Both the position numbers and the translations under genes were made by a program. From the NCBI GenBank assembly GCA_050014195.1, contig JBEKDT010000007.1, positions 96,001 through 160,000 on the forward strand: a DNA stretch of 64,000 bases, in the 5' to 3' direction. Positions 1 to 62,220 of this stretch are shown here, piece by piece. The notes under the pieces are model-generated. The model worked only from the letters and a program-made list of their open reading frames with translations, searched no databases and was not told the origin of the DNA. Position 1 is the first letter of the stretch; each line of letters starts with the position of its first letter. Source of the stretch: Desulfomonilia bacterium (GTDB taxonomy: Bacteria > Desulfobacterota > Desulfomonilia > UBA1062).

Positions 1-936
1 GAACCGGAAGAATTCATCTGTGATCTGATAAAGCCCCTTTTTGCTCTTAAGGGGTTTCTCTTCAGTCACGGGCAGCTCACGTTCAACGATTTTAAGGTCT
101 GCAAGAACTCCAAGATATTTATTTGCAACTGGCTGAGGGAGACCGGTTGCATTTACTATCTCTGAAAGCTTCCTCTTCCCCTGGGCAATCGCCTGAAGAA
201 GTGCGAAGTAATAACGTGGCTCACGGAGCTCCTCCCTCAATATGAATTCTACCTCGTCATAAAGGACCTCCCCTTTTTTCAACACGGAGTGTTTCAGATT
301 ATCTTCAAAGCCGATCTCATCATTGAAGTGAAGCCAGTATGCTGGTATCCCACCGGCTACTGAAAAGTGACATATCCTGTCTTCAAAGGACTTCCCTCGT
401 CTGAACAATTCCACCGAATTGAAGGGCATTGGGTCCACTCTCCATTGTCCGGTTCTTCTGCCATACAGTGGGGACTTATATCCCAGCACTTCATTCTCCA
501 TCATGGCAATGCTCGATCCAAGTAAGATGAGAAAAGAATTCCCATGAACCCAATACTCATCCATCGCCTTCTGAAAAAGGCTTGTTATTCCCGGATTCGA
601 AGAGATGAGATATGGGAATTCATCTATTGCGAGAATGAATCGTTTCTTTTTTGATTGAATGTATTGAAAGCATTCCTCCCAGGAAGAGAAGCCCCGGGTT
701 TCCAAGAGAGGCTCCTCGTAGAATTTACCAAGAGCCTGAGACAATCTTATAAGCTGCTCTTTCTCATTGGTGTTCTCGGACAGGTAGTATACATGAGGTT
801 TGTCCTTGATAAACTGTTTTACCAGTTCTGTCTTCCCTACCCTTCTCTTACCCCAGAGGACTATAAATTGAGCTTTCTTTGTCTTCCATTTATCCTCAAG
901 AAAGGAAAGCTCCTCATGTCTGTTGATGAAGGCCAT
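1..936 (-). CDS. Archaeal-type AAA ATPase (ATPase_2/DUF234-like), truncated by window edge
   Basis: Manual translation from ATG 936 (AGGAGG RBS upstream): MAFINRHEELSFL...LWGKRRVGKT (Walker A)...ILAIDEFPYL (Walker B)...LGSSIAMM...SPLYGRRT; frame stays open to position 1. Confidence 0.85.
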   Translation of the reverse strand, partial: MAFINRHEELSFLEDKWKTKKAQFIVLWGKRRVGKTELVKQFIKDKPHVYYLSENTNEKEQLIRLSQALGKFYEEPLLETRGFSSWEECFQYIQSKKKRFILAIDEFPYLISSNPGITSLFQKAMDEYWVHGNSFLILLGSSIAMMENEVLGYKSPLYGRRTGQWRVDPMPFNSVELFRRGKSFEDRICHFSVAGGIPAYWLHFNDEIGFEDNLKHSVLKKGEVLYDEVEFILREELREPRYYFALLQAIAQGKRKLSEIVNATGLPQPVANKYLGVLADLKIVERELPVTEEKPLKSKKGLYQITDEFFRF

Positions 937-54516: not shown

Positions 54517-54903
54517 TCAATATTGTATCGGTTTAATAGATCGAGCTTCTTGGATACCTTCTTTATTGATAATATAGTGCACTCTCACCTGCTGCCCAAC
54601 TGTTAGCTTATCAAACGGTATTGCTTTCCAATCTGGTCCATAAATTGTCGTAGTGGTCACTATAAAGAAGATGTAACTCTTTCCTACTTTATCAGTTAGA
54701 AATATCTTTGGCCTTATTCCTTTTGAAGGATTAGCGAGGTGGATGTCATCTAACTTCCCTATCACTTCTAATGGGGCGATTACTTTCTTAGATACAGGAG
54801 GAGGGGTTCCCCTTTTCTGCTGGGACATGTCTGTATTCTGTCCATTGCAGGAAAAGAGGAGAACCCCAAGGGTGCAGATCGAAATTATTGCAACCCTCTT
54901 CAC
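54517..54903 (-). CDS. Lipoprotein, OB-fold-like (paralog of 51935-52369)
   Basis: Lipobox LFSC; C-terminal domain shared with the paralog. Confidence 0.7.
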   Translation of the reverse strand: MKRVAIISICTLGVLLFSCNGQNTDMSQQKRGTPPPVSKKVIAPLEVIGKLDDIHLANPSKGIRPKIFLTDKVGKSYIFFIVTTTTIYGPDWKAIPFDKLTVGQQVRVHYIINKEGIQEARSIKPIQY

Positions 54904-54938: not shown

Positions 54939-55319
54939 TTACTCTGCAGGCTTCGCTGGTGGCGTCTCTTCTGCTTTCTTTTCCTTCATAACTGCCTTCT
55001 TCATTGCCTTCTTTGCCTTAATAACCTCGATCTTGTCTGCGTTCAGGGTGCCGGCTGCCGCTGTAATCTTTACCATCTGACCCTTCTTCAGGTTAGCAAT
55101 ATCTTCCGCCTTCACGGTGAAGGTCTTGCCCTTTACATCGATCGTGTTAGCTGTTTTGTCGATCTTGGTAATCTTGCCCTTGATTACATCGGGCTTTGCC
55201 ATCTCTGTCTTTGCAGGCTCTGCCTTTGCTGCTGCGGGTGCTGCTGCGTCGGCTGCGAAGACCATCGTGGTGAAGCACACCAGTGCCAGTACTGCGATTA
55301 AGCTGATAACTTTCTTCAT
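54939..55319 (-). CDS. Secreted Lys/Ala-rich OB-fold-like protein
   Basis: Signal peptide, GKITKID..TIDV..LKKGQMVKI; GGAGG RBS. Confidence 0.75.
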   Translation of the reverse strand: MKKVISLIAVLALVCFTTMVFAADAAAPAAAKAEPAKTEMAKPDVIKGKITKIDKTANTIDVKGKTFTVKAEDIANLKKGQMVKITAAAGTLNADKIEVIKAKKAMKKAVMKEKKAEETPPAKPAE

Positions 55320-55730: not shown

Positions 55731-56801
55731 ATGAAAAGAATCTTGCTGATACTGTTGCTTTTTGTTCTACCGATTTATTCCGGCTTTACTGCTGACACAA
55801 AATATGAGGTAGCTACCTTTGCAGGCGGCTGCTTCTGGTGCATGGACGCTGCTTTCGAAGATATCCCGGGCGTCATTGAAGTGATAACCGGATACACGGG
55901 TGGGCATACTAAGAACCCAACCTATGAAGAAGTTTCAGCCGGCGGAACAGGCCATGCCGAGGCAATCCAGGTTACATACGATCCAGCTAAGGTTACCTAT
56001 TCAAAGCTCCTTGATGTCTTCTGGAAGCAAGTCGACCCTACAGACCGCAGTGGTCAGATGGCTGACAGGGGATCACAATATAGAACGGTAATCTTCTATC
56101 ATACGGAGGAACAAAAGCGGCTTGCCGAGCAGTCAAAGCAAGTCCTTAAAGAATCAGGTAGGTTTAATAAACCTATTGTCACAGAAATTACAAAGGCAAC
56201 AGATTTCTACCCTGCAGAAGAGTACCACCAGCATTATTTCAAAAAGAATCCACTTGGCTATAACTCGGGACGCGATAACTATCTGAAGAAGGTATGGGCA
56301 GACAACAACAGTGTTTCACTCCCACGATATACAGATAAGGACTACAGAAAACCATCAAAAGTTGAACTGAAAAAGAAGCTCACACCCCTGCAATTCAGGG
56401 TGACCCAGAACAAGAGCACGGAACAACCATTCGATAACGAGTACTGGAATAATGAGCATGAGGGGATCTATGTTGATATTGTGTCCGGTGAGCCTCTATT
56501 CAGCTCTAAGGACAAATACGACTCTGGTACTGGATGGCCTAGCTTCACAAAACCGCTTGAACCTGGAAACATTGTAGAGAGGCAGGATGGAAGCTTGTAC
56601 ATGCTGAGGATCGATGTGAAGGAGGTTAGGAGTAAACTTGCTGACTCACACCTTGGCCATGTCTTTACGGATGGTCCTGCACCAACAGGACTGCGTTACT
56701 GCATGAATTCGGCTGCTCTGCTGTTTATTCCAAAAGAAGACCTGACAAAAGAAGGTTATGGGCGGTATCTTAATCTTTTCAAAAAAGATAATGAGTTCTA
56801 A
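55731..56801 (+). CDS. msrAB: Secreted methionine sulfoxide reductase MsrAB, copy 1
   Basis: Signal peptide; [34 protein letters not shown]. Confidence 0.93.
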
Positions 56802-56960
56802 AGAACTCAACTCCTCATCCTATTCAAGTTAGAGTCGTTTCCTTGATGGTATCGTTGAAGCCTGCAATATTTATAGACATCTCTAATCTCTCTGGTTTTT
56901 TCAAATAAGAACATTATTTCTTAGGGGGAGATCAAAACCGAAACGAAAGGAGCATGATCC

Positions 56961-57269
56961 ATGAATAATGGCTTTCTTATGAGGAAGTTTGCCATTGCAG
57001 GGTGCCTGCTTTTACTCTTGTGCGGGGTGCATTGGACTGCGCAGGCTTCTGATGAAGAGAAAAAAGTGGTATTTGTCGTGGCTTGATATGACGTAGGCAA
57101 AGAGGCCTTGGAGAGGCTTCCAGGTGTAAAAAGGGTCGAAAAAGGATTCCATTTTTTTCAAGAAATAAACACTGTTTTTTATGACCCGTCAAAGATAACC
57201 GTCGACGAAATGGAAAGGGCGTTGAAGAAGGCAGGAACATATAAGAAGACATTGGGAGCGAAACCGTGA
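56961..57269 (+). CDS. Secreted selenoprotein, HMA/mini-MsrA-like fold (UGA at 57084-57086)
   Basis: Manual translation: signal peptide..KKVVFVVA-U-YDVGKEALERLPGVKRVEKGF..NTVFYDPSKITVDEMERALKKAG; frame continues 60 codons past TGA; SECIS-like hairpin at 57102-57120. Confidence 0.7.
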
Positions 57270-57437: not shown

Positions 57438-58511
57438 ATGATCAGAAATATCATGAAAGGATTTATAGCCATATTGCTTGTATTGCCACTATCTACCGGG
57501 AACGCAGCTAATACAAAATATGAACTGGCTACCTTTGCCGGGGGATGCTTCTGGTGCATGGTGCATCCCTTTGATAAGCTCCCTGGGGTGAAGGAGGTTC
57601 TCTCAGGATACACCGGGGGACATACCGTCAACCCCACCTATGAGGAGAACTCATCCGGGACAACAGGCCATGCCGAGTCCATCCAGATAACCTATGACCC
57701 AGCGAAGATATCATATGCGGACCTGCTAGAGGTATTCTGGCGGCAGATTGACCCGACCGATGCAGGGGGGCAGTTTGTGGACAGGGGAAACCAGTATAGG
57801 AGCGCCATCTTCTATCACAACGATGAGCAGAAGAGACTCGCAGAGGAGTCCAGGGACCGTCTCGCAAAGTCAGGCAGATTTACAAAACCCATCGTCACCG
57901 AGATTGTGAAGGCTGGCCCGTTCTATAAGGCAGAAGAATACCACCAATATTACTACAAGAAAAACCCGGTCCGGTATAAATATTATAGGTACAGATCAGG
58001 CCGAGACCAATTCCTTGACAAGGTCTGGGGGAAAGACAGGGAAGATACACCAGCAAAGGTTAAAACAGGTTCATACACCAAGCCGAGTGCAGAGGTCCTG
58101 AAAAAGAAGCTCACACCAATGCAGTTCAAGGTAACCCAGAAGGGTGGAACAGAACCGGCTTTTGATAATGCATATTGGAACAACAAGCATGAAGGGATTT
58201 ACGTGGATATCGTCTCCGGAGAACCACTATTCAGCTCCAAGGATAAGTATGACTCCGGCACCGGCTGGCCAAGCTTTACCCGGCCTCTGGAGCCGGGCAA
58301 TATCGTGGAGAAGCAGGATAATACCCTGTTCACTACAAGGACAGAGGTCAGGAGCAGGCATGCAGATTCTCATGTTGGGCATGTATTCAATGACGGCCCA
58401 CCCCCTACGGGACTGCGCTATTGCATGAACTCGGCTGCCTTGCGCTTTATCCCCAAGGAAGACCTGCAAAAGGAAGGATACGGACAGTATCTTAAACTAT
58501 TTGATAAATAA
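57438..58511 (+). CDS. msrAB: Secreted methionine sulfoxide reductase MsrAB, copy 2
   Basis: Same motifs as copy 1; signal peptide; GGAGG RBS. Confidence 0.93.
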
Positions 58512-58577: not shown

Positions 58578-59279
58578 TCAAGTTAAAGGTCCCGACTGCC
58601 CCTTTATTTGAAGGGATGCCTTGATCTTCTTGTAGACTGTCGGGATCAATGCAAAAAGCCCAAGGAGTGCAAAGGAGATGAGCACACGGGGACTCGCAAC
58701 ATCACGCATGGTATTGATGGATGCAATGCTCGAACCTGCATTCGCATAGACGAAGCTTCCGGGAAGAATCCCCACCATGGTACCTATGATGTAGGTCCTC
58801 AGCTGCAGGCCCGTGATCCCACAGGCAAGGTTGACGAGGAAAAATGGAAAGAGTGGGACTAGTCGCAAAAAGAGGAGGTACGACATCCCGCTTTCGCTGA
58901 GTCCCCTATCCAGGGCCTCCATTTGTTTGCCGAACTTTTTCACCACCCAGTCCCGCAGCAGGTTACGGGCCAGGAGAAAGGCCAGGACAGCCCCCATCGT
59001 GGCCCCGATATTCACCCATATCGTTCCCATTAGCGCCCCAAATACGGCTCCGCCAGCCAGGGTAAGGATGGCCGCCCCAGGCAGGGAAAGGGCGGTCTGC
59101 ACAGTATAGATGACGATGTAGCTCACGATGAAGATGAGCATGTGGTTTGAATAGTAATTCAGGAGATAGTCTCTGTTTGTCTTGAGGCTTTCAAGTGTGA
59201 GGTATCTTCCGAGATCCAAATAGTAAAATATGCCGATCGCGAGGGCAATGATAATGAGTAATGCTATCTTCTTTTTCAT
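58578..59279 (-). CDS. TVP38/TMEM64 (DedA/VTT) membrane protein
   Basis: LSLPGAAILTLAGG..FG and LFLRLVPLFPFFLVN motifs. Confidence 0.92.
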   Translation of the reverse strand: MKKKIALLIIIALAIGIFYYLDLGRYLTLESLKTNRDYLLNYYSNHMLIFIVSYIVIYTVQTALSLPGAAILTLAGGAVFGALMGTIWVNIGATMGAVLAFLLARNLLRDWVVKKFGKQMEALDRGLSESGMSYLLFLRLVPLFPFFLVNLACGITGLQLRTYIIGTMVGILPGSFVYANAGSSIASINTMRDVASPRVLISFALLGLFALIPTVYKKIKASLQIKGQSGPLT

Positions 59280-59431
59280 TGGTTCTCCGCTATCGCTTCT
59301 TCTCCATTGAGAGATACAGAATAATCATGATCATCATCCGGGAGCTTGAAAATATCTCCATTTACCATCTGCAGATTTAATAAAGGGAATTGATCACCAG
59401 TATCCAATGCATTTGAACTCACCCTGGCCAT
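59276..59431 (-). pseudogene. Truncated AhpC/TSA peroxiredoxin-like N-terminal fragment (51 aa)
   Basis: GGAGG RBS; MARVSSNALDTGDQFPLLNLQMVNGDIFKLPDD resembles a Prx N-terminus but lacks the active-site strand; stop overlaps the TVP38 start (ATGA). Confidence 0.45.
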
Positions 59432-59638
59432 GTTTTTCCTCCAAGATTGGATTATCTTCTGTATAATGATAAGCTTCTAATGTCAGGAATCAAAAAGGTT
59501 GATATTTTTATCATGCCCTGAGTCCTTGTTTAATTCTTATATCTCCCTATCATAATCTACCAATTTGCTGAGAAAAAATCCTAAGCAAAAAACAAACTTC
59601 ATGAACACGGTATCATCTTGAGTGAGGGAGGACAGAAG

Positions 59639-61126
59639 ATGCCAACCTTTGATTATGATCTCGGAATCATCGGCGGAGGAGCTGCAGGGCTGACAGCCGC
59701 GGCAGGCAGCGCACAGTTCGGTGCAAAGACCATCCTTATAGAGAAAACAGACAAGCTAGGGGGAGATTGCCTCCATGTGGGCTGCGTTCCGTCAAAGACA
59801 CTCATCCGCACTGCACGGGTATGGGCACAGGCAAAAAGATCCAAAGAATTCGGTCTGCCGGAACTGTTGCTTCCCCCTGTCGATCTCGGTGCAGTCATGG
59901 ACCGAGTACATGCGGTCATAGAGAAGATCCAGCACCACGATTCTGCTGAACGGTTCTGCTCTCTCGGGGCGCGCGTCCGCTTCGGGAGCCCTGCCTTTGT
60001 GGATAACCATGTAGTAAACCTTGACGGTGAACGCATCTCGGCAAAGAGCTGGATCATCGCCACCGGGTCGAGCCCTGCCCTGCCTCCGGTAGAGGGATTG
60101 AGTAGTGTGGCGTTCTGGACCAACGAGACCGTATTCTCTCAGAGGAAGCTCCCCAGGTGCCTCATCGTGCTGGGTGGCGGACCTATCGGCCTGGAGCTGG
60201 CCCAGTCATTTGCACGTCTGGGAGCAAAAGTTATCGTTGTAGAATTCATGGGCCAGATCCTGGGCCCTGAAGACGCTGACCTCGCTGACATCCTGAAAGA
60301 GCGACTTGTTGCCGAGGGTGTGGAAATCCATACCGATACCAAGGCTATCAGAGCAGAATCAAGTGGCGAAATGATTGCACTGACTATTGGGCCTTCAAAG
60401 GGGGAGGGACCAACCCAAGTCATCGAAGGGGATGCCATTCTTGTTGCAGCTGGACGCAAGCCGAATATTGAAGGTCTTAATCTCGATGCCGCCGGAGTAA
60501 AATATACTCCGAGGGGCATCCCTACAAACGACCGGATGAAGACCAATATCTCCCATATCTATGCCTGCGGTGACATCAACGGAGTCATGCCGTTCACCCA
60601 CGTTGCTGGCTATGAAGGCGGGATCGCGCTCACCAACGCCGTGCTCCGCCTGCCTAGGAAGGCGGACTATTCAAAGATCGGGTGGTGCACCTACACAGAC
60701 CCTGAGGTCGCGAGCATCGGGCTCAATGAAAAACGCGCCCAGAAAGAAGGCACCGGGTACCGCGTCATCGAAGAGCACTTTGTAGATAACGACCGGGCAC
60801 TTGCAGAGGGAGAGACGTTGGGCAAGATTAAGATGCTCGTGAGCCCGAAAGGCTCTCTGCTTGGCTGTCAAATCATCGGGGCGCATGCGGGAGAGCTCAT
60901 CCATGAGTGGATAGTGTCCATGGCTGCTGGTATTAAACTTTCAACCATGGCGGGCACAGTGCATATCTACCCTACCATGTCTGAAATCTCCAAGCGCGTA
61001 GCAGGCGACCTATTCGCATCGAAGATCTTTTCGGAAAAGACCAAGACTGTGCTCCGCCTGCTTTTCAACCTCAAAGGCAGGGCGTGCAGCCTGACTGAAG
61101 CAGTTGCTGATAACCTTCACTCGTGA
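59639..61126 (+). CDS. FAD-dependent pyridine nucleotide-disulfide oxidoreductase (Lpd/MerA-like)
   Basis: GGGAAG, GGDCLHVGCVPSK, GGGPIG, HIYPTMSE; no MerA C-terminal CC pair. Confidence 0.9.
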   Translation: MPTFDYDLGIIGGGAAGLTAAAGSAQFGAKTILIEKTDKLGGDCLHVGCVPSKTLIRTARVWAQAKRSKEFGLPELLLPPVDLGAVMDRVHAVIEKIQHHDSAERFCSLGARVRFGSPAFVDNHVVNLDGERISAKSWIIATGSSPALPPVEGLSSVAFWTNETVFSQRKLPRCLIVLGGGPIGLELAQSFARLGAKVIVVEFMGQILGPEDADLADILKERLVAEGVEIHTDTKAIRAESSGEMIALTIGPSKGEGPTQVIEGDAILVAAGRKPNIEGLNLDAAGVKYTPRGIPTNDRMKTNISHIYACGDINGVMPFTHVAGYEGGIALTNAVLRLPRKADYSKIGWCTYTDPEVASIGLNEKRAQKEGTGYRVIEEHFVDNDRALAEGETLGKIKMLVSPKGSLLGCQIIGAHAGELIHEWIVSMAAGIKLSTMAGTVHIYPTMSEISKRVAGDLFASKIFSEKTKTVLRLLFNLKGRACSLTEAVADNLHS

Positions 61127-61227
61127 TTAATATTAATACGCCATGGAATAGTGTCCTTGACACTTGTTTTTTTGATGATCTTAAAGCGGGGAATATAGTA
61201 CATGATATAAGAAGAAGGAAATGTAGC

Positions 61228-62220
61228 ATGACGTCTTCTGAGCAGATCAGGCTGCTCAATGACAATCCATTGAACATATCGTTTCATAAGAGGATCATCT
61301 CGCCTCTCTGCGCTGATGCCATCGACATACTCCAGATAAATGTGGGTAAAAGATGCAACCTCTCGTGCAGGCACTGCCATGTTGAGGCCGGGCCACACAG
61401 GTCAGAGGTAATGGGCATGCAGGTTTTCGAGAAGTGTCTTCAAGTGCTCCAAGATCACCCGATCGGTACCATAGATATTACCGGTGGTGCTCCGGAAATG
61501 AACCCTGAGCTTCCATGGTTTATTCAGGAAGCTGCCGGATTGAAGCGCAGGCTGATGGTTCGCTCGAACCTCGTTATCCTCCTTGAGAAGCCCTATGAGC
61601 ATCTCATAGACCTTTATGCAGATAATAAGGTCGAGATTATCGCCTCCTTGCCTGATTACCACGAAGAACGGGGCAACAGACAGAGGGGGGAAGGAGTTTT
61701 CAAGCGAATCCTGGAAGTGATGCGACTGCTCAATGAGCGGGGATACGGCAAGCCTGGGAGTAGCCTGATCCTGGATCTTGTCTATAATCCTGTGGGCACC
61801 TACCTGCCCGGGGCGCAGCAGGCCCTGGAGTATGAATATAAAACCAGGATGGAAAGCGAGCACGGAGTCGTCTTCAATACCCTCTATTGCCTGGTCAACT
61901 CACCAGTGGGCAGGTATCTCGACTATCTAATCCGATCGGAGAACTTTGAAGATTACATGCATGCCCTCAATACATCCTTTAACCCATCTACTATTCATTG
62001 TCTGATGTGCCGGAATACCCTGTCCGTAGGATGGGATGGGCACTTGTATGACTGTGACTTCAATCAGATGCTGGGTCTGACGGTTGAATGTACTCCCTCA
62101 AACAATATCAACAATTTTGATTTTGAAAGATTGAGAAACCGGAAGATCGTCATCGGCAATCACTGCTTTTCCTGTACTGCAGGTGCAGGTTCATCATGCC
62201 AGGGAGCTCTTGAAAAATAG
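61228..62220 (+). CDS. arsS: Radical SAM protein, ArsS/DUF3641 family (Cys form)
   Basis: LQINVGKRCNLSCRHCHV, DITGGAPE, YDCDFNQM, HCFSCTAGAGSSCQG. Confidence 0.85.
   Translation: MTSSEQIRLLNDNPLNISFHKRIISPLCADAIDILQINVGKRCNLSCRHCHVEAGPHRSEVMGMQVFEKCLQVLQDHPIGTIDITGGAPEMNPELPWFIQEAAGLKRRLMVRSNLVILLEKPYEHLIDLYADNKVEIIASLPDYHEERGNRQRGEGVFKRILEVMRLLNERGYGKPGSSLILDLVYNPVGTYLPGAQQALEYEYKTRMESEHGVVFNTLYCLVNSPVGRYLDYLIRSENFEDYMHALNTSFNPSTIHCLMCRNTLSVGWDGHLYDCDFNQMLGLTVECTPSNNINNFDFERLRNRKIVIGNHCFSCTAGAGSSCQGALEK

Follow-up and report, generated by a model that had tools for sequence, protein, structure and literature searches.

A predicted exported selenoprotein with an HMA-type fold encoded between two msrAB genes of a Desulfomonilia bacterium

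The contig JBEKDT010000007.1 of a Desulfomonilia bacterium (assembly GCA_050014195.1) was analysed over a stretch of 64,000 nucleotides (positions 96,001 to 160,000 of the forward strand), which is called the window for simplicity and in whose numbering coordinates are given. Between two genes for exported fusions of the methionine sulfoxide reductases MsrA and MsrB (msrAB genes), the window holds a small gene with an in-frame UGA codon (56961-57269). The observation of an exported small selenoprotein gene at this place, which had been made in an initial annotation from the letters alone, was confirmed as real, and comparison with homologous sequences indicates that the gene is very probably a genuine selenoprotein gene. 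Its product represents a new and so far uncatalogued selenoprotein family that combines an HMA fold and a single selenocysteine (Sec) with an unexpected, statistically supported similarity to the core of MsrA and with a gene location that ties it physically to exported Msr systems. The overall explanation, in which a real selenoprotein is blended with an Msr-linked redox role, appears modestly probable to us.

The UGA codon and the hairpin that follows it

The gene starts with the ATG at 56961, has 41 sense codons ahead of the UGA at 57084-57086 and 60 behind it, and closes with a TGA stop (57267-57269). Calling of open reading frames (ORFs) with translation table 11 splits this frame at the UGA and yields a 41-aa ORF and a 53-aa ORF starting with TTG, which is why the gene is missing from the ORF track and unannotated. 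The N-terminus consists of MNNGFLMRK, FAIAGCLLLLLCGV and HWTAQA-SDEE, in which a basic n-region, a hydrophobic core and a cleavage-type site (AQA-S) can be recognized by eye, and a hydrophobic N-terminal leader is present in all homologs. A signal peptide of the secretory (Sec) type and export of the protein are predicted on these grounds. The predicted mature part (73 residues) contains no Cys. In all these respects, namely the absence from the ORF track, the frame that stays open for 60 codons when TGA is translated as Sec, the signal peptide and the lack of any other Cys, the initial annotation had described the gene correctly.

An initial protein search returned three relatives, of which one showed Cys and two showed Trp at the position of the Sec. 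The column was examined at the DNA level because Trp in protein relatives would count against a selenoprotein. Homologs were taken from the contigs of one genome per species, from Joint Genome Institute (JGI) metagenome contigs (best 80 of 232 relatives) and from the second copy in the host genome. Across these 123 DNA-level homologs the frame is conserved, and the Sec column holds TGA in 112, TGC in 6, TGT in 4 and CGA in 1 of them, while TGG was not found once. The one-genome-per-species contigs contain 44 loci that encode relatives, three of which are fragments; the window together with the 41 loci covering the column accounts for 40 TGA and 2 TGT codons, and the 80 JGI contigs for 71 TGA codons, 8 Cys codons and 1 CGA. 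Positions -4 (F), -2 (V), +4 (G) and +8 (L), on either side of the TGA, are invariant, and the sequence past the gene's own TGA stop is not conserved among the homologs. A degenerate DNA motif pattern containing TGA was found in at least 120 genomes, and 103 of the 120 matches listed show the family motif. The same pattern with TGG occurs at one place in 185,579 genomes, and this place is not a family member.

At the protein level, the family profile retrieved 272 representative proteins (E <=0.001) from a library of 1.84 billion proteins. Of the 153 library proteins examined, 81 cover the Sec column, with Cys in 48, Trp in 29 and other residues in 4 of them; the remaining 72 are fragments, and many of the fragments start just past the column. 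The Trp forms that were looked up (7 members from 5 clusters) were all located on contigs of 517-1376 bp, whereas Cys forms were found on contigs of up to 17.8 and 44 kb. Since TGG is absent at the DNA level and the Trp forms are confined to very short contigs, the Trp residues look like TGA codons translated under a gene-calling model in which TGA encodes Trp. An artefact of this kind on short metagenome contigs can hide selenoproteins or seemingly refute them. Trp at the column was what the initial annotation had named as speaking against a selenoprotein, and what it had anticipated instead, TGA or Cys in homologs that are conserved on both sides, is what the DNA holds. The representatives P0002, P0004, P0008 and P0014 are among the Trp forms; the exact DNA behind P0002 and P0004 was not found in the DNA-level homolog search.

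The family therefore comprises a Sec/Cys pair, with 10 Cys codons among the 123 DNA homologs in addition to the Cys-containing protein representatives. In a quick tree the Sec and Cys forms were interleaved and poorly resolved, with about 9 label changes of which 1 is forced by supported branches. One metagenome copy (L142:882) has CGA (Arg) at the Sec column and a degraded motif, and the copies at four genome loci (L062-L065) are truncated or frame-shifted; gene decay or errors of assembly probably account for all of these.

The host genome (100% complete, 29 contigs) possesses the machinery for Sec insertion that the initial annotation presupposed. The genes selA (524.6 bits), selB (332.2 bits) and selD (381.1 bits) all scored above the curated cut-offs, and a tRNA-Sec was detected with 72.9 bits (gathering score 47). 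The selD gene, located at L010 (G000:C2:353599-354516, minus strand), carries one in-frame TGA, so the selenophosphate synthetase of the host is itself a selenoprotein. The host genome further contains a second copy of the family on the same contig, about 67 kb away and inverted, in which the TGA is kept. It lies in a second cassette of the arrangement msrAB - selenoprotein - msrAB (L151:246-3036, equal to G000:C7:84356-87146, minus strand), so that each host copy is flanked by msrAB genes on both sides; the MsrAB proteins of this cassette are 92-94% identical to those of the window. Between the two host copies, 12 codons show synonymous and 13 show non-synonymous differences, and the stretch ahead of the TGA contains 8 differences, only 2 of them non-synonymous. 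These differences indicate purifying selection on both halves of the gene.

Downstream of the UGA, the initial annotation had noticed a hairpin with the geometry of a bacterial SECIS (Sec insertion sequence) element; this proposal held up against published constraints. The hairpin GAGGCCUU-GGA-GAGGCUUC begins 15 nt past the UGA, has its loop 23 nt past the UGA and forms 8 pairs (2 of them G-U) with -9.3 kcal/mol when folded alone. The bacterial SECIS (bSECIS) model, as given in the accessible text of a 2026 review (PMC13188914), asks for a loop of 3-9 nt, a stem of 4-16 bp, a G in the first two loop positions, a spacing of 16-37 nt and a minimum free energy of <=-7.5 kcal/mol; the GGA loop, the 8-bp stem, the 23-nt spacing and the energy of the window hairpin all fall within these limits. 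The strict bSECIS test was passed by 56 of 81 Sec forms, by 0 of 7 Cys forms and by the single CGA form neither (0/1). Mean folding of the 27-nt region amounted to -8.9 kcal/mol for 75 distinct Sec forms versus about -3.4 kcal/mol for 7 Cys forms.

For a comparative view of the hairpin, the 60 nt from the TGA onward were aligned without gaps for 40 Sec-type genes. The core 5 pairs of the 8-pair structure form in 87-100% of the 39 distinct Sec sequences, and 76.6% of the cells pair as compared to 26-59% when the partner is slid. Compensatory double changes from C-G to U-A were observed at pair 25-31 in the clade of the window and at pair 24-32 in L059, and one clade lacks pair 23-33 but has three extra pairs at the base of the stem. 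The synonymous sites of the stem are frozen (Ala+7 is GCC in 37/39, Leu+8 is CTG in 36/40 and Gly+10 is GGG in 31/36 sequences), in contrast to Gly+13, which spreads evenly over its four codons (13/11/10/6). This synonymous-site constraint is stronger evidence for the hairpin than the covariation.

Several results weigh against the hairpin as a SECIS element. The strict bSECIS test is failed by 25 of the 81 Sec forms, mostly due to one internal mismatch or stems of -6 kcal/mol. The covariation is modest, its score being reached by 5 of 500 shuffles and the independent events being few, and RNAalifold run on the 40-sequence alignment missed the hairpin and gave only a 3-pair helix elsewhere. 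In the window itself, a 71-nt stretch around the hairpin was no more stable than shuffled sequences (z -0.69), so the single sequence is only suggestive of a SECIS element. A search of the whole window with Rfam at the gathering threshold gave no match, which is uninformative because we know of no general model for bacterial SECIS elements.

Fold and sequence relatives

A model calculated with AlphaFold2 from the family alignment displayed the order beta-alpha-beta-beta-alpha-beta with a pLDDT of 93.9. The top matches in Foldseek were CopA, MerP and HMA7 (TM 0.70-0.76), and MsrA chains appeared at ranks 30 and 42 with TMq values of 0.68 and 0.67. In VIA, MerP was matched with Z 10.8 and a root-mean-square deviation of 1.7 A over 66 residues, and the top 50 entries were all HMA domains. 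A search of the PDB with a 40-sequence family profile likewise retrieved MerP (E 0.0018) and HMA domains of copper ATPases, while MsrA chains reached only E 1-3. The HMA-type fold suggested in the initial annotation is hence recovered in the model and in the structural matches.

Sequence models, by contrast, do not cover the protein: Pfam contains no family matching it at E up to 1 (including HMA, PF00403, and PMSR, PF01625), and none of the curated Pfam and NCBIfam models reaches its cut-off. The best NCBIfam matches, all sub-threshold, were the VPGUxxT type 2 family NF041383 (E 3.5e-7, 30.2 bits versus a cut-off of 275) and the UxxU metal-binding (seleno)protein family NF041115 (E 1.1e-6, 28.6 bits versus a cut-off of 95). 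MerP (E 8.2e-5) and CopZ were far under their cut-offs, and the MsrA model TIGR00401 gave an E of 0.12 (12.8 bits versus a cut-off of 108). Profile positions ~141-209 of NF041383 show weak similarity to the new family as well as to the MsrA cores at the N-termini of the neighbouring MsrABs (G000:C7:151794-152027 and 86847-87071), and this catalogued family may hold the same HMA/MsrA-like module.

Alignments of profiles with hhalign connected the family to two groups. With 30 HMA domains from relatives of the same class, the probability was 96.4% (E 1.2e-9) over 47 columns (residues 16-64), and with 15 MsrAB proteins it was 93.7% (E 2e-7) over 56 columns (residues 4-59) with a 17-residue insertion on the MsrA side. 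The HMA and MsrAB profiles matched each other with 50% (E 1.6e-4) over 41 columns. In the alignment with MsrA, the Sec coincides with the first (catalytic) Cys of GGCFWC, although the motif of the family reads U-[YF]-D-V where MsrA has GCFW(G/C) at the helix N-terminus; Glu39 of E-I-N-T-V coincides with the Glu of GHAE, and PGV..V..G[FY] and YDP also match. The parallel to the MsrA core with Sec near the catalytic Cys, which the initial annotation had pointed out by eye, thus has statistical support, with the Sec aligned to that Cys. In the HMA register, the Sec takes the place of the second Cys of CxxC (GMxCxxC, the metal-binding motif of the b1-a1 loop), whereas the column of the first Cys varies and holds hydrophobic or other residues.

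The invariant residues of the family (mature numbering) are F9, V11, U13, G17, L21, G26, E39, N41, T42, V43, L59 and T64, and F, V, C, G, G and E do not vary among the Cys forms. The motifs of the family are U-[YF]-D-V-G and E-I-N-T-V-Y-Y-D-P. The Sec, the only redox-active residue of the domain, sits where helix a1 begins, a position that is structurally equivalent to those of the catalytic Cys of MsrA and of the second HMA Cys. Because the topology of the fold puts the starts of b3 and b4 next to the end of b1, E39 and N41 (start of b3) as well as T64 and Y65 (start of b4) are expected to lie beside the Sec.

The protein is therefore best described as an HMA-fold domain which stands outside the HMA family by model score and by the CxxC motif, and it resembles the MsrA core but is not an MsrA, because it has neither the loop nor the C-terminal half of MsrA and lacks most of the subsite formed by Tyr-82 and Glu-94 together with Tyr-134. 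According to the accessible text of PMC6316033, these three residues constitute the sulfoxide-oxygen subsite of MsrA. Glu alone is kept of this subsite in the family. The Glu aligned to GHAE is the one that we take to be Glu-94 (E. coli numbering).

Gene neighbourhood and possible roles

The features of the cassette are listed in Table 1.

Table 1. Features of the cassette in the window and of the encoded protein.
Feature	Position	Strand	Remarks
Upstream exported MsrA-MsrB fusion gene	55731..56801	+	Pfam PMSR 1.2e-66, SelR 4.3e-44; motif RYCMNS
Shine-Dalgarno-like AGGAG	56948..56952	+	8 nt upstream of ATG, read from sequence
Whole selenoprotein gene	56961..57269	+	102 codons including one Sec codon, then TGA stop; translated with TGA=U
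Signal peptide (predicted)	56961..57047	+	29 codons, predicted cleavage after AQA; judged by eye; homologs with hydrophobic leader
Mature 73-residue HMA-fold domain	57048..57266	+	AlphaFold2 model, Foldseek and VIA matches
Sec codon UGA	57084..57086	+	precursor residue 42, mature residue 13, directly before helix a1
SECIS-like hairpin	57102..57120	+	stem of 8 bp with GGA as apical loop
Downstream exported MsrA-MsrB fusion gene	57438..58511	+	Pfam PMSR 2e-65, SelR 3.9e-47; motifs as upstream copy
Secondary structure (mature numbering)	b1 5-11, a1 14-22, b2 27-35, b3 38-45, a2 52-62, b4 65-70		

Among the 44 genome loci, MsrA and/or MsrB were detected by tblastn within about 4 kb of the family gene in 24. 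Neighbouring genes were scanned with Pfam in 233 of the 257 ORFs called, i.e. all except the 24 farthest from the gene, and NCBIfam names were added. The active sites of the Msr neighbours are uniform, with GGCFWC in 23 of 23 MsrA domains and SGTGWPSF in 28 of 28 MsrB domains. In the GTGWP form of MsrB, the Cys for recycling that is part of the CGWP(S/A)F signature is absent (accessible text of PMC6316033). The Pfam scans of the 233 neighbour ORFs revealed no gene for a periplasmic thioredoxin-like reductant, and the host has one gene of the CcdA/DsbD type, which lies away from the cassette.

Based on sequence and gene context, a redox component of envelope methionine-sulfoxide repair is the most likely role of the protein, although we hold this assignment only tentatively and short of even confidence. 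For translation, the UGA would be read as Sec, with the in-gene hairpin recruiting SelB and Sec-tRNA(Sec), and removal of the 29-residue signal peptide would leave a periplasmic protein of about 73 residues. The selenolate, activated at the helix N-terminus beside a pocket of Glu, Asn and Thr, would then attack an oxidised sulfur, either the sulfenic acid of an exported one-Cys MsrB or the oxidised CxxC of MsrA; direct reduction of sulfoxides or oxidants by the Sec protein would be less likely. The product would be a selenenylsulfide or a selenenic acid, to be re-reduced by a separate donor. A two-electron cycle cannot be closed by one Sec on its own, so a second partner would be needed, and a dimer, the YHS protein described below, a CcdA-fed thiol or a quinol-linked system are candidates for it. 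Recycling of the exported MsrABs, which the initial annotation had considered possible, would fit the gene neighbourhood (24 of 44 loci). We infer this chemistry, the partners and the electron source from the features described above.

In a more specific version, the protein would be a selenium-dependent, thioredoxin-independent recycling partner or a minimal catalytic module for extracytoplasmic Msr repair and, at the same time, a living intermediate between HMA domains and the MsrA core in sequence space. The intermediate position is proposed because the family matches both groups (E 1.2e-9 and 2e-7) far better than they match each other (E 1.6e-4), and it would suggest that MsrA either descended from a one-Cys redox domain of HMA-like type or was the ancestor of one. 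Judged from sequences, this combined proposal is unlikely in its entirety. The family in any case links HMA domains and the core of MsrA at the sequence level, and it is a concrete candidate answer to how exported MsrA/MsrB, and the one-Cys MsrB in particular, are regenerated in the periplasm of anaerobes without a fused thioredoxin domain.

Four observations count against a role in Msr repair. No Msr gene was found within 4 kb in 20 of the 44 loci, and the link to Msr is for this reason frequent but not obligatory. The nearest families by sequence and fold are the metal binders MerP, CopZ and the UxxU proteins, most of the substrate pocket of MsrA is missing from the protein, and a single Sec without a partner Cys cannot itself deliver two electrons.

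The main rival reading also takes the protein as a real selenoprotein but assigns to it the role of a periplasmic chaperone or scavenger of soft metals (Cu(I), Hg(II), Ag(I) or similar). The HMA fold would offer the selenolate as a ligand, a dimer partner or the YHS (seleno)protein encoded nearby would supply the second one, and the Msr link would reflect a shared regulon for copper- or oxidant-induced envelope stress. This reading draws on the relatedness to metal binders, i.e. the sub-threshold matches to the UxxU family, MerP and CopZ, the match to MerP in the PDB, the exclusively HMA-type top 50 of VIA and the hhalign result with HMA domains. In addition, canonical HMA domains (PF00403 at E 1e-8) were found neither in the host nor in 12 genomes of the same genus, and the niche of a chaperone could be open; 8 of 8 class relatives searched carry 3-4 HMA domains. 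On the other hand, the protein has one soft ligand only, with the first HMA Cys replaced by hydrophobic or varied residues, and the remaining invariant positions hold Glu, Asn, Thr, Asp and Tyr, the first three of which are placed near the Sec by topology and resemble a polar catalytic pocket more than a thiophilic metal site.

The neighbouring genes bear on the metal reading in both directions. YHS-domain (seleno)proteins of NF041384 are encoded next door in 6 of the 44 loci (L042, L024, L026, L029, L033 and L038). In the YHS gene of L042 (1186-1653), a TGA in frame occupies the U position of GGY-U-AYAV, which is Cys in L026, and L042 thus holds two exported single-Sec genes side by side. In about 20 of the 44 loci, response regulators of the OmpR type and HAMP histidine kinases adjoin the family gene, and the kinases score against models of heavy-metal sensors; these scores are under the curated cut-offs, however, and BaeS, WalK and PhoR rank as high. 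No assignment of the two-component systems to HprRS/CusRS was possible, as all matches are generic and under the cut-offs. Neither a metal pump nor a multicopper oxidase was seen as a recurrent neighbour in the scans, which contained a single, unrelated P-type cation ATPase (L039). Weighing these points, we regard a metal-handling role as rather unlikely, but as deserving more attention than the readings that follow.

A minimal reductase of sulfoxides (or of sulfenates or selenoxides), i.e. a stripped MsrA core acting on small substrates such as free methionine sulfoxide with Sec in place of the catalytic Cys and the conserved Glu as acid, is improbable. The 56 aligned columns, in which the catalytic Cys is matched by the Sec and the GHAE Glu by Glu39, and the shared PGV..V..G[FY] and YDP motifs would agree with such an enzyme, as would the MsrA chains among the Foldseek matches and the recurrence of TIGR00401 and several MsrA structures at noise level, and Sec-containing MsrA enzymes are known (PMC13188914). 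However, the 17-residue loop and the entire C-terminal half of MsrA are missing, only the Glu of the oxygen subsite is kept, the FW of GCFW is replaced by Y/F-D and PMSR is not matched in Pfam at E up to 1.

That the gene is no selenoprotein gene at all, with the UGA terminating translation (a pseudogene or two unrelated small ORFs) or being read as Trp, is highly improbable, since the two short ORFs called with table 11, the Trp in database representatives, the unexceptional stability of the single hairpin and the lack of an RNA run among the sequencing runs listed with near-identical sequence are outweighed by a frame that stays conserved on either side of the TGA in 112 sequences of several phyla, natural Cys homologs, zero TGG codons at the DNA level, the confinement of the Trp forms looked up to short contigs, the full Sec machinery with a Sec-type selD, and the gene's own stop, which is also TGA and is followed by sequence that is not conserved.

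Other genes recur around the family as well. Molybdopterin oxidoreductases that are MsrP-like or sulfite-oxidase-like, which speak for the role in Msr repair, are encoded in 7 loci, three of them paired with a cytochrome b; their best match was MsrP with about 98 bits (under the cut-off of 207), and others look SorA-like. Further recurrent neighbours are lactonase-type beta-propellers, DUF7482 and GH15. In the window, the cassette is followed at 58578-62220 by genes for a VTT/DedA protein (minus strand), a MerA/RclA-like pyridine-nucleotide-disulfide oxidoreductase using flavin adenine dinucleotide (FAD) and a radical S-adenosylmethionine protein with DUF3641, and genes for VTT/DedA, FAD reductase and DUF3641 recur near the family in L022-L025, L028-L030 and L037. 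Just upstream of the cassette, two small ORFs with hydrophobic leaders are found on the minus strand (54517-54903 and 54939-55319), one with a lipoprotein-like Cys and the other rich in Ala and Lys, neither matching Pfam or NCBIfam.

Relation to known families and distribution

HMA proteins (MerP, CopZ and the N-terminal domains of CopA/ATP7) share the fold, with MerP at Z 10.8, and have their reactive residue at the start of a1 as well. MerP is a small periplasmic protein. In contrast to the single Sec found here, HMA proteins contain GMTCxxC, they are encoded in mer/cop operons instead of an Msr gene context, and the new family has invariant motifs of its own and no match to Pfam HMA. The known selenoprotein families that gave the best NCBIfam matches, NF041115 (UxxU) and the HMA-like segment of NF041383, differ by two Sec residues (UxxU) or a thioredoxin-like VPGU, respectively, from the one Sec and the other motif of the family. 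With MsrA, including its Sec forms, the family has in common the N-terminal core aligned over 56 columns, the nucleophile at the same helix N-terminus, the Glu, PGV and YDP elements and the adjacency of the genes, whereas the 17-residue loop, the C-terminal ~100 residues with the rest of the active site and the FW motif are confined to MsrA. The YHS (seleno)protein of NF041384 is likewise small and exported with one Cys/Sec (GGY-[C/U]-AYAV), but its fold and family are unrelated and already catalogued (PMC1976440, PMC13188914); none is encoded in the genome of the window.

A possible functional analogue is the N-terminal domain of Neisseria PilB, which the accessible text of PMC6316033 describes as an extracytoplasmic partner encoded together with MsrA-MsrB that regenerates their active sites. 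By this analogy one may hypothesize a PilB-like recycling role of the Sec protein. The PilB domain differs, however, in that it has a thioredoxin fold and CxxC and is fused to the enzyme, whereas the protein described here stands on its own and has an HMA fold and a single Sec.

The initial annotation had proposed a single-Sec protein of about 70 residues from a potentially uncharacterised selenoprotein family, and comparison with published catalogues agrees with this proposal. None of the 119 families and subfamilies in Table 1 of the 2026 review (PMC13188914) fits the protein. Identity with TsoY (UxxV) was rejected as its 366-position model has no match in the genome. The accessible parts of the deep-Sep paper (PMC12013277), of the 2022 review (PMC9312934) and of the Haft preprint (10.1101/2022.07.06.499078) do not contain a description of the family, nor does the accessible text of the 2007 Olavius paper (PMC1976440), whose OS_HP figure alignments and '15 additional TGA-containing sequences' lay outside the comparison. 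OS_HP1 and OS_HP2 of the Olavius paper were considered as candidates; judging by how later tables are ordered, they may have become DUF3179 and DUF1573. No description of the family was found in the full-text literature, figures and subscription journals being outside coverage. In databases, homologs are named 'copper chaperone CopZ' or 'hypothetical protein', with one evident misnomer, and the nearest clusters to the Cys form P0005 in the ESM Atlas are unnamed hypothetical proteins.

The family adds a widespread member to the bacterial selenoproteome, with at least 120 genomes at the DNA level and 272 representative protein clusters. Current gene callers split or mistranslate it, and the origin proposed above for the Trp residues explains a database artefact, namely Trp at a Sec column. 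In a sample of the phylum, 15 of 401 genomes carry the family; 13 of the 16 matches have one TGA, 2 have none and 1 is partial. Within this sample, neither the 2 other genomes of the genus nor the 6 genomes of the taxonomic family contained it. The protein family occurs in Desulfobacterota, and its carriers include Desulfobacterales, Syntrophales, Syntrophorhabdales, Nitrospirota/Thermodesulfovibrionia, Deferrimicrobia, SAR324, Planctomycetota and the Delta 3 and Delta 4 symbionts of Olavius. A tblastn search of a plasmid collection gave no match. Near-identical DNA is present in 24 metagenome runs from peat and wetlands. Two carriers, Desulfospira joergensenii DSM 10085 and Desulforhopalus sp. 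IMCC35007, are in culture, which makes the key experiments feasible.

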